This document shows, piece by piece, positions 6,841-59,876 of a DNA stretch of 64,000 bases; position 1 is the stretch's first letter, and each line of letters begins with the position of its first letter. A program made the position numbers and the translations under genes. The notes beneath the pieces are model-generated. The model searched no databases. It was not told where the DNA came from and saw only the letters and a list, made by a program, of their open reading frames with translations. This DNA comes from an archaeon (GTDB lineage Archaea; Nanobdellota; Nanobdellia; Pacearchaeales; GW2011-AR1): contig JABHWZ010000009.1 of the NCBI GenBank assembly GCA_018657525.1, positions 2,855 to 66,854 of the forward strand, read 5' to 3'.

Positions 6841-6876
6841 CCAATAGGCATACCCCAAATTGCGGAATATTGGGGC
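6839..6876. repeat. family F element, copy 1, in inverted orientation to 7276-7311
   Basis: ggccaataggcataccccaaattgcggaatattggggc is about 85 percent identical to the reverse complement of 7276-7311. Confidence 0.8.
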
Positions 6877-6936
6877 AAATTTACGTGACTTAGAATCCTG
6901 AAGAATTAATATATATTATCTTGCTTCGATAATTGA

Positions 6937-6976
6937 CACTGCTCAGTGTACCTCTTTTTGCGGAGTGCTTGGGCAA
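6937..6976. repeat. family E 40-nt mini-element, copy 1
   Basis: cactgctcagtgtacctctttttgcggagtgcttgggcaa; related copies at 35599-35638 and 58082-58118. Confidence 0.8.
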
Positions 6977-7221: not shown

Positions 7222-7275
7222 ATATATAATTATTTTAGAAACAGGTATTTAAAGATTTATTCTTTGGTGTCTTAC

Positions 7276-7311
7276 GCCCAGTATTTCGCAATTTGGGTGA
7301 TGCCTATTGGC
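7276..7311. repeat. family F element, copy 2; overlaps the stop codon of rps3ae
   Basis: gcccagtatttcgcaatttgggtgatgcctattggc; see 6839-6876. Confidence 0.8.
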
Positions 7312-35598: not shown

Positions 35599-35638
35599 CA
35601 CTGCTTAGTGTGCCCTTCTTTGTGGTTTGCTTGGGCAA
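35599..35638. repeat. family E 40-nt mini-element, copy 3, flanked by TTTTAA direct repeats
   Basis: cactgcttagtgtgcccttctttgtggtttgcttgggcaa; ttttaa at 35593-35598 and 35639-35644. Confidence 0.8.
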
Positions 35639-57942: not shown

Positions 57943-58239
57943 ATGAGTGAATTTTTATGGCATAAGGTTTCTGAAAAAGAGAAAGAAGAAATTTCTAAAA
58001 AAGCAAAGTTAATAATGGATAATTTTTCTAAAAAGTTAGATTTTGTAAAAGAGAGTATGTCTGAGAATTTTATTGAGGGGGCACTGCTCAGTGTACCTTT
58101 AGTTGCGGAATGCCATGGTAAAATTTTTGAGAGGGAGGAAGGTAATTGTGAAGGGTTGGATATAAATAGAAAAGTTATGTTTGAGAATGCTCCTCAAAAA
58201 AATGATTCTTTTATAATTGCGGAGAAAAAGAAATGGTAG
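57943..58239 (+). CDS. gatC: GatC-like amidotransferase subunit C carrying an 18-aa in-frame insertion
   Basis: C-terminus REEG....R..MFENAPQKNDSFII resembles GatC (REDE...NAP...G.F.VP); gatA lies two genes downstream. Confidence 0.5.
   Translation: MSEFLWHKVSEKEKEEISKKAKLIMDNFSKKLDFVKESMSENFIEGALLSVPLVAECHGKIFEREEGNCEGLDINRKVMFENAPQKNDSFIIAEKKKW
58082..58118. repeat. family E mini-element, copy 2, inside the gatC-like CDS
   Basis: cactgctcagtgtacctttagttgcggaatgccatgg; the first 17 nt are identical to 6937-6953. Confidence 0.8.
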
Positions 58240-58248
58240 GCAGATTAA

Positions 58249-58590
58249 ATGTTTGAAACAATTGAAGCAATGAGGATTGCAATTACACAATTTTTGAGTG
58301 TAACTTTAGTTAATAATTCCTTTCTTTTTTTGAATCTTTGGTCGTTTGTTCATTTTATTAGTGGAGGAATTATTATGGTTTTATTATTGAAATATCCATT
58401 TTTTAGAAAACGTAATTCTCTTTTTGTTTTATTAATTTTACTTGGATTGTGGGAAATTGTGGAGTACCCTCTTTATACTTTTAAGTTGGGTTTTGCTATA
58501 GAAAATAGAATTGATATTGCGTGGGATTTAGTTCTTGGGATGTTTGGGGGAATTATAACTCATAATTATTTTAATGGGGGAAAGAAATGA
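58249..58590 (+). CDS. small membrane protein
   Basis: Three or four TMs; WEIVEY...DL..GMFGG echoes the motif in 45581-46228. Confidence 0.5.
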   Translation: MFETIEAMRIAITQFLSVTLVNNSFLFLNLWSFVHFISGGIIMVLLLKYPFFRKRNSLFVLLILLGLWEIVEYPLYTFKLGFAIENRIDIAWDLVLGMFGGIITHNYFNGGKK

Positions 58591-59876
58591 AAAAAACAAT
58601 TGAACAAATAAAAAAAGAAAATAAAAAGATTAATGCGATTTTGGAATTTAATTCAGATTTTAAAAAAAATAAATTGGGGCGTAAAGGAAAACTTGTTGGG
58701 AAGGTGATTGGAGTTAAGGCTAATATTTGTGTGGAGGGATTGCATGCGTCGTGTGCTTCGAAAGTTTTAGAAAATTATAGGGCACCTTATGATGCAGATG
58801 TTATTTCAAAAGTGAAAAAAGAAGGGGGGGTTATTTTAGGAATGTGTAATATGGATGAATTTGCCTCTGGAAATTCAGGAGAGACTTCTGCTTTTGGTCC
58901 AACTCAAAATCCCACTATTGCGGGATATATCCCGGGAGGTTCTAGTTCTGGTCCAGCTGCCTGTGTTGCTGCTGAGTTTTGCGATTTAGCGGTGGGTTCG
59001 GATACTGGGGGTTCAATTAGAAATCCAGCTTCATTTTGCGGGATGGTTGGTTTAAAACCTAGTTATGGTGCGGTTTCAAGATACGGATTAATTGATTTAG
59101 CTATGAGCGCAGATACAATTGGCCCAATAGCAAAAACTGTGGAAGATTGTGCTTTACTATATTCTGTTATTTATGGACGAGATGAAAAAGATGCAATTTC
59201 TCAAAAAACTCAGTTTAATTTAGACAAGATTAAAAAAGTTCCTAAAAAAATAGTTGTGGGAATTTTAGATTTGTCTGAATTAAAAGTGGATAAAAAAATT
59301 GTTGAATTAGTTGAGAATAAAATTAAGAAAAGTTGCGAGGAGTATAGATGGGAAATTAAGAAAATGAAAATTCCTCATTTGGACTTGGCAGTTGAAACTT
59401 ATTATCCAATTGTTTATGTTGAAGCATTTTCTGGGACTTGTAAATTAGATGGTAGAAGATTTGGAAAAAAAGTGGAGGATGCTGCTGGTCCTGAATTTTT
59501 GAGAAGAGTGCTGGGAGGGAAAGAGATAACAAAAGCAGAGCATTCCGGAAGATATTATAACAAAGCGATGCAAGTAAAGAACTTTATTGAAAAAGAATTT
59601 GAGAAAGTTTTCGAAAAGTTTGATTGTGTGGTTTGTCCAACTGTGCCTCGTTTGCCTTGGAAAATTGGCGAGAATATTTCTATTGAAGAAAATTATGCGG
59701 CAGATGCTTTGACCATTCCTTCAAGTTTGGCTGGAAACTGTGCTATTTCAATTCCTTCAGGGGAAATTAATAAAATTCCAGTAGGGATGCAAATTATTTG
59801 TGATAAATTTCAAGAAGAAAAATTGTTACAGATTGCTAATGCGGTTGAGAAAACAAAATGCAAAAATTTAAAGTAG
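58587..59876 (+). CDS. gatA: Asp/Glu-tRNA amidotransferase subunit A (amidase signature)
   Basis: GGSSSGPAACVAA...GSDTGGSIRNPASFCG..GLKPSYG. Confidence 0.85.
   Translation: MKKTIEQIKKENKKINAILEFNSDFKKNKLGRKGKLVGKVIGVKANICVEGLHASCASKVLENYRAPYDADVISKVKKEGGVILGMCNMDEFASGNSGETSAFGPTQNPTIAGYIPGGSSSGPAACVAAEFCDLAVGSDTGGSIRNPASFCGMVGLKPSYGAVSRYGLIDLAMSADTIGPIAKTVEDCALLYSVIYGRDEKDAISQKTQFNLDKIKKVPKKIVVGILDLSELKVDKKIVELVENKIKKSCEEYRWEIKKMKIPHLDLAVETYYPIVYVEAFSGTCKLDGRRFGKKVEDAAGPEFLRRVLGGKEITKAEHSGRYYNKAMQVKNFIEKEFEKVFEKFDCVVCPTVPRLPWKIGENISIEENYAADALTIPSSLAGNCAISIPSGEINKIPVGMQIICDKFQEEKLLQIANAVEKTKCKNLK

Follow-up and report, generated by a model that had tools for sequence, protein, structure and literature searches.

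Hairpin-guided single-strand insertion at replication forks is the pattern of the IS200/IS605 insertion sequences and of the REP/RAYT systems, in which REPs are extragenic, share a conserved 5' GTAG and have RAYT genes lying between them. REP elements and the RAYT (Y1/HUH) transposases, together with IS200/IS605 single-strand transposition, were reportedly treated by Ton-Hoang et al. in 2010, and Rickettsia palindromic elements (RPEs) are said to have been described by Ogata et al. in 2000. A published review presents RPEs as bacterial elements of Rickettsia, ~100–150 bp in length, hairpin-forming and gene-less, that sit in frame in housekeeping genes (PMC10969869). Classic MITEs, among them the SM elements of Sulfolobus and the Correia elements, have terminal inverted repeats and target-site duplications as their defining traits; they are small, non-coding, multicopy and patchily distributed, and some of them form in-frame fusions (PMC10969869).

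The repeat analysed here, family E, was found in a 64-kb stretch of DNA from a DPANN archaeon (the window, meaning the whole stretch under analysis), in which one copy lies within a gatC-like gene. The source genome comprises 828 kb on 14 contigs, with 32% G+C and a completeness of 84%. The gatC copy is very probably a mobile-element-derived insertion translated in frame with its host. The explanation that best covers the evidence as a whole, namely that a 39-nt non-autonomous mobile element made of two hairpins resides in gatC and is translated as a 13-residue loop, is held with good, if slightly lesser, confidence.

The gatC gene and its 39-nt insertion

The host gene (positions 57943–58239 of the window, plus strand) is an open reading frame encoding 98 aa. 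Its assignment to GatC in the initial annotation is borne out by matches to the NCBIfam GatC models TIGR01827 and NF000681 in all 13 aligned orthologs (best E 6e-17), and by gatA, which encodes the amidase (58587–59876, plus strand; Pfam Amidase, E 4e-109) and lies two genes and 350 nt downstream of the host gene. The source-genome protein itself scores 27.7 bits, the insert taking it under the curated cut-off, and it is not recognised by Pfam. In a profile comparison, Aquifex GatC (3h0l_C) is matched weakly along almost its entire length. A GatC homologue is present in 28 of 41 related genomes.

Within this gene the element spans positions 58082–58120 of the plus strand (39 nt), and is recovered by the family models with E-values of 9e-12 (nhmmer) and 1e-13 (covariance model R2, 42.9 bits). 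The sequence originally quoted for positions 58082–58121, cactgctcagtgtacctttagttgcggaatgccatggtaa, was confirmed, as was the identity of its first 17 nt to the intergenic copy at 6937, with which it agrees at 32 of 40 positions in an ungapped comparison; the corresponding figure for the copy at 35599 is 28 of 40, likewise ungapped. The 13-mer CACTGCTYAGTGT has three exact occurrences in the window, and a mismatch-tolerant search for it there returned four matches against 0.64 expected from shuffles. A chance similarity, or a lineage-specific GatC loop with no relation to the intergenic copies, is a negligible prospect: nothing but the shortness of the element speaks for it, and it would have to accommodate E-values of 1e-11 to 1e-13, the 32/40 identity to an intergenic sequence, and the recurrence of the element in unrelated genes, in both orientations and in several frames.

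Read in the gatC frame, the copy falls in codons 47–60, the first and last of which are shared with the split host codon G^AA (the caret marks the insertion point), and encodes residues ALLSVPLVAECHG for a net gain of 13. The gatC segment that spans the element reads ...FIEGALLSVPLVAECHGKIFER..., and precise removal of the element would give the junction ...GGGG^AAATT.... In the ortholog alignment the source genome is alone in having 13 additional residues, which coincide precisely with the translation of the element, and orthologs from the same genus and the same family are without them; GatC from two genomes of the same genus measures 85 aa vs 98 aa in the source genome, and 51 of 54 further database homologs measure 82–88 aa. 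The proposal of a dispersed short element lying in frame in a GatC homologue and absent from its orthologs is thus upheld. Since the orthologs are shorter by exactly 13 aa, the insertion amounts to 39 nt, and before it the gene would, in the simplest case, have read ...ATT GAG GGG G^AA ATT TTT GAG AGG..., the 39 nt having been added after the G. The site lies in the linker between the N-terminal helical part of GatC and its C-terminal RE.E...NAP segment. Exactly this insert-bearing protein is encoded on 35 contigs and is thus fixed in this population; together with the intact frame and the conserved motifs, this argues for a GatC that probably still works.

These comparisons bear directly on the size originally proposed, a 40-nt element with an imperfect ~14-nt target duplication, giving an insertion of 54 nt or 18 codons. 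That attttattgaggggg and atttttgagaggg lie on either side of the element is correct, and to this extent the observation stands; their meaning as a target duplication does not, since insert-free orthologs hold both segments, and FIEG and KIFER of the source protein appear there as FIER-EEC-ER or FVEL-DEF-ER. The ‘imperfect target duplication’ is thus an old protein quasi-repeat (FIER..xxxER) that predates the element, and excision of 54 nt as a route to the ancestral state would remove residues that the ortholog alignment shows to be conserved. Nor does a duplication emerge from the family at large. When the k-mer ending at position -1 was compared with the k-mer following the element in 102 copies of the 39-nt class (k = 2–6, four offsets), matches were as frequent as in the shuffled control, and the two sites for which the empty state could be resolved, in gatC and in a methyltransferase gene described below, show no target-site duplication, the second site likewise gaining 39 nt. 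Set against the exact 13-residue difference, these results leave the 54-nt reading highly improbable. The exact TTTTAA repeats pointed out around the copy at 35599 are indeed present, as the only 6-mer flank match among the 102 copies; given the lack of signal across the set, this pair is attributable to chance rather than to target duplication. Enrichment in the flanks is confined to a purine (R) at -1 and to the AA that follows the insertion.

Other insertions occupy the same linker elsewhere. Proteins P0048 and P0053, and likewise the GatC orthologs at L008 (genome G023) and L009 (genome G014), carry different inserts of 16–25 residues a few residues downstream of the family E site. In P0053 the insert (HPRVYTKEVREPLRG...) is similar to the translated sequence of another hairpin element, found beside a family E copy at locus L022. 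The occurrence of different inserts in several lineages indicates that the GatC linker has repeatedly tolerated insertions.

Copies, hairpins and coding neutrality of family E

Searches of all contigs of the source genome by fuzzy matching and by profile HMM (nhmmer) established that the three copies initially recognised are not the only ones, the total being about 20. Fuzzy matching identified 14 full copies (HMM E-values 2e-15 to 2e-10), to which the HMM added one copy with a loop insertion and several partial copies, and covariance model R2 gave 20 matches. In the window, the intergenic copy at the tRNA-Thr locus spans 6937–6975 (plus strand), and that at 35599–35637 (plus strand) lies 13 nt upstream of the start of a minus-strand gene, to which it is antisense. 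At 6846–6881 (plus strand) lies a partial copy, in which the hairpin Y module ACCCCAAATTGCGGAATATTGGGGCAA is preceded by another 5' part. The same module follows gccaataggcat both at 6846–6881 and, as the reverse complement, at 7270–7310, so that the two lie inverted on either side of tRNA-Thr. Hairpins thus behave as modules exchangeable among element families.

Several copies of the source genome reside in genes. The C-terminal tail of an ScpB-like protein contains one in the same frame as in gatC (ALLSVP...AECLGK), with 21 extra nt in the loop and a total length of 60 nt, and a kinase-like ORF takes its final residues and its stop codon from the element. In a DUF1858-type redox protein the element follows the fourth codon (MKKQ HCSVYPKLRNAGA KITKDMTF), but comparison with the same-genus ortholog gives an 11-residue gap within a length-variable, Lys-rich N-terminus, making this a less clean case. 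A reverse-oriented element contributes a 13-aa insert to a HemK-like methyltransferase (C10:188993–189580), and exactly these 13 residues are missing from 11 orthologs, including one from the same genus that is 76% identical; nucleotide comparison fits a gain of 39 nt at G^AA, read in the orientation of the element. The family-B DNA polymerase (PolB) gene also carries the element in reverse orientation. There, at C9:47467–47560, another Y-like module, CTCCAAAAAGTTTGAATTCTGGAGCAA, comes after the degenerate reverse copy, and the two together constitute a composite in-frame insert. Two tandem family E copies separated by a 31-nt A-rich spacer were also observed at C10:15847–15957, where they precede a gene for dihydrouridine synthase and are antisense to it. 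Copies of the source genome share lineage-specific changes, a T/C-rich start of the loop and TGGG replacing GGGG, in keeping with amplification within the lineage.

Across genomes, the consensus consists of an R preceding the element, CACYGCTCRGTG TA CCCC AAAnnnCKGAATnnn GGGG CA as the element itself, and AA R following it. It comprises hairpin X (CACYG-CT-CRGTG) and hairpin Y, formed by CCCC, a 13–15-nt loop with the conserved bases AAA...CKGAAT, and GGGG, after which the element closes with CA. Both hairpins are backed by compensatory changes. At pair 4:9 of hairpin X, for which the search pattern permitted all four combinations, 79 copies have C-G, 24 have U-A and one has U-G, and two copies replace the A-U of pair 2:11 by C-G; the mini-hairpin with which the element was originally said to open is therefore real. 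Further X stems, drawn in part from other genomes, are CACCG/CGGTG, CCCCG/CGGGG, CGCAG/CTGCG, CGCCG/CGGCG and GCCG/CGGC. In hairpin Y, CCCC/GGGG is kept across loop lengths, with GGGCC/GGCCC and CUCC/GGAG as variants, and the copy at C8:4355, in which the whole stem is swapped to GGGCC/GGCCC, supports the hairpin in its own right. Pairing is intact in 98% of all stem cells, and the observed covariation score was reached by none of 500 shuffles. In the gatC copy, hairpin X (CACTG-CT-CAGTG) occupies 58082–58093 on the plus strand and has compensatory variants across the family, whereas hairpin Y (58096–58118, plus strand), as placed by family alignment and pair counts, is degenerate, reading CCTT...ATGG vs CCCC-loop-GGGG in the consensus and keeping three of four pairs.

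Compensation is also seen between resident copies. Two orthologous aminoacyl-tRNA synthetase loci that are ~90% identical and carry the element at the same site differ by a compensatory C-G to T-A switch. Comparison of the metagenome loci L224 and L215, ~90%-identical orthologous aminoacyl-tRNA synthetase loci with a KMSKS motif, revealed a 45-nt, 15-codon in-frame insertion in L224 only. It lies ~230 nt downstream of the family E copy that both loci have and is unrelated to family E, amounting to a presence/absence polymorphism of another mini element.

With ends placed by a regular expression running from CAC to GGGGCA, 91 of 116 copies measure 39 nt, and in 103 of 116 the length is a multiple of three. 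Other recurrent classes are 33, 42, 57 and 69 nt, and the composites of 57, 60 and 69 nt contain extra hairpin modules. A 42-nt variant is tandemly duplicated in an ORF of ~700 codons at metagenome locus L206 (2600–2685). Taking in-gene status from the length of the open frame rather than from annotation, 40 of the 91 copies of 39 nt are embedded in frames that continue for 40 codons or more without a stop on either side. In-ORF copies are mostly in sense, a first tally counting 32 forward vs 6 reverse. The most common phase is that of gatC, with one host base before the element, as might be expected if GAA (Glu) codons are the most common target at G^AA; phase 0 comes next. At gene junctions the element frequently finishes with ...GGGGCAAAGATG, which puts its G-run at what may be the position of a ribosome-binding site. 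Of the reading frames checked on the consensus, almost all are free of stops; this and a unit of 13 codons account for the maintained gatC frame and for translation of the element as a 13-residue loop, which the frame and length constraints make probable.

The same features weigh on the possibility that the element is an intron removed from gatC mRNA at the RNA level, for instance by the archaeal splicing endonuclease acting on a bulge-helix-bulge (BHB) motif. A BHB at the element ends would require a conserved exonic CCCC 3–6 nt upstream, and inspection of the consensus with its flanks found no conserved exon-side complement, only the R at -1; the BHB candidate was rejected on this ground. 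Moreover, translated sequence would be expected to have length classes divisible by three and to stay open in the frame of its host, as the in-gene copies do, neither of which an intron requires. Removal of the element as an intron is very unlikely, and we retain the reading of an insertion translated with its host.

Distribution and strand orientation

A first covariance model, R1, was built from source-genome copies only and proved too lineage-specific, with matches in 3 of 61 relatives, so that the broader model R2 was used instead on 201 genomes sampled from the order. Matches were found in 14 of these, with 1–20 copies each and the source genome the richest; the 14 genomes belong to one family and to 12 of 101 genera. 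Genome and metagenome collections were additionally scanned with an 18-nt degenerate core, and yielded a non-redundant set of over 100 copies from AT-rich contigs, whose metagenomic portion was seeded by an exact 18-mer and is biased toward well-kept copies. The named AT-rich contigs among these are labelled Pacearchaeota, Woesearchaeota or Nanoarchaeota, while the many matches of the 18-mer scan to GC-rich bacteria in the genome collection were set aside as a chance effect of composition. Phage records contained no family E match and IMG/VR viral contigs no exact motif. Against Rfam, the window gave only tRNAs at the gathering threshold, and the surroundings of the 6937 copy gave nothing meaningful at E <= 10. 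No polymorphism between empty and occupied family E sites was seen between very close strains, so that mobility is read from the distribution of the element rather than observed.

The direction in which the element points is locked to GC skew. Skew serves as a proxy for the direction of replication, but is confounded with gene-strand bias and so mixes replication with coding-strand effects. In the source genome all 15 full copies have their forward strand on the local G-rich strand, and six further R2 matches follow the same rule, for a total of 21/21. The only plus-strand copy on contig C10 lies beyond a skew switch at ~183 kb and is still on the G-rich strand, and the PolB and methyltransferase copies are oriented according to skew and not according to their host gene. 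In two further genomes (G219 and G080) 19 of 20 copies are concordant, and among the collection loci 66 of 80 are, including four of five antisense to the host ORF. The region of the C10 switch (~182–184 kb) combines the minimum of cumulative GC skew with a flip in majority gene orientation and a gene-free gap of ~1 kb (182135–183216), making it a possible replication origin; Orc1/Cdc6 was not recognised by eye among the long ORFs near ~183 kb.

This locking invites the alternative that family E is a cis-acting hairpin selected by the host as a strand-oriented chromosomal signal (in protein binding, priming or chromosome organisation), following a logic similar to that of REP/BIME, Chi or KOPS, of which the gatC copy is a tolerated by-product. 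The conserved loop nucleotides AAA...CKGAAT and the compensatory change that keeps pairing between orthologous resident copies point the same way as the orientation, and could reflect a host function of the element. However, a core signal would be expected to be more universal than one found in 14 of 201 genomes at 1–20 copies, some copies are decaying (the Y stem in gatC, the PolB copy), and a mechanism of spreading would be required in any case. A primary role as a host signal is therefore improbable, though it is the most substantial of the competing explanations, and a mobile element remains the preferred account.

Proposed mechanism and relation to known systems

In the scenario we propose, the family would have spread through part of the Pacearchaeota-type DPANN archaea, with insertions into genes, into gene junctions and into intergenic DNA, and the gatC copy would have entered the linker by splitting a G^AA site, leaving no target-site duplication. 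Small size, two hairpins, the lack of terminal inverted repeats (TIR) and of duplication, a weak R^AA preference and strand locking together form a pattern like that of IS200/IS605 and REP/RAYT. By analogy, insertion may target one particular strand at the replication fork, at the time when this strand is single-stranded, through an enzyme acting in trans that recognises the hairpins and is either of the HUH/IS200-IS605/RAYT style or new. This fork-coupled mechanism is offered tentatively, as one that may well prove wrong. No candidate mobilising gene was found, and the Y1 transposase (PF01797) is absent from the 84%-complete source genome. Y1 transposases occur in 12 of 41 relatives, and neither the X nor the Y motif was present within 2–3 kb of seven tnpA loci of relatives. 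In three related genomes (G002, G017, G021), several IS200/IS605 tnpA genes were noted at most a few hundred bases away from a contig end, indicating that such insertion sequences may be under-represented in draft assemblies, that of the source genome included.

A more far-reaching generalisation, speculative and on balance unlikely to hold in full, is that DPANN archaea harbour a previously undescribed class of phase-neutral hairpin elements of 13 codons, which a divergent HUH/RAYT-type or new hairpin-recognising enzyme would write into one strand at the fork with a preference for G^AA, mostly in Glu codons. If this were true, phase-neutral elements could establish themselves in the essential genes of densely packed genomes with no lethal effect, and act as a steady source of protein surface loops. 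DPANN genomes are very small and gene-dense, with scant room for selfish DNA, and a 13-codon, nearly stop-free and duplication-free element could be inserted almost anywhere in a gene with the frame kept. Copies in GatC, DNA polymerase, ScpB, aminoacyl-tRNA synthetase and other proteins would explain many odd short insertions in DPANN proteins, which, not being homologous positions, matter for annotation and phylogenetics of this group. The link between orientation and strand asymmetry provides a testable handle on the insertion mechanism, and could serve to mark replication direction in uncultured archaea.

A literature search did not find such elements described in DPANN archaea; what is new here is the minimal unit of 39 nt, its codon neutrality, the lack of duplication and the strand lock. 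The likeness to RPEs lies in a repeated palindrome placed in frame in protein-coding genes (here gatC, the HemK-like methyltransferase, ScpB and PolB) of a small-genome host, adding a peptide segment without destroying the gene. Unlike RPEs, family E is archaeal, measures 39 nt, consists of a defined two-hairpin unit and is locked in orientation to strand asymmetry, and no sequence relation between the two was seen. With a similar outcome but a different size and lineage, family E works as an RPE does without being a member of that group. As in classic MITEs, a small multicopy non-coding element shows a patchy spread suggestive of mobilisation in trans, but its ends (CACYGCTC... and ...GGGGCA) are not reverse complements, so that TIRs are absent, and neither the 102 copies nor the two resolved sites show target-site duplication.

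In form the resemblance is closer to REP/RAYT and IS200/IS605, with which family E shares an imperfect palindrome of 20–40 nt, multiple copies, the absence of TIRs and target-site duplications, and an orientation tied to the replication strand (here by way of the skew proxy). It departs from REP/RAYT in that about 40% of its copies are intragenic and the source genome lacks a Y1 gene. As to the specific 4–5-nt target immediately 5' of the insertion, and the ends shared with an autonomous IS, that go with IS200/IS605-type transposition, only R^AA enrichment was seen and no autonomous partner was found. Family E thus resembles RPEs in outcome, while in form it stands nearer to REPs or to relics of IS200/IS605.
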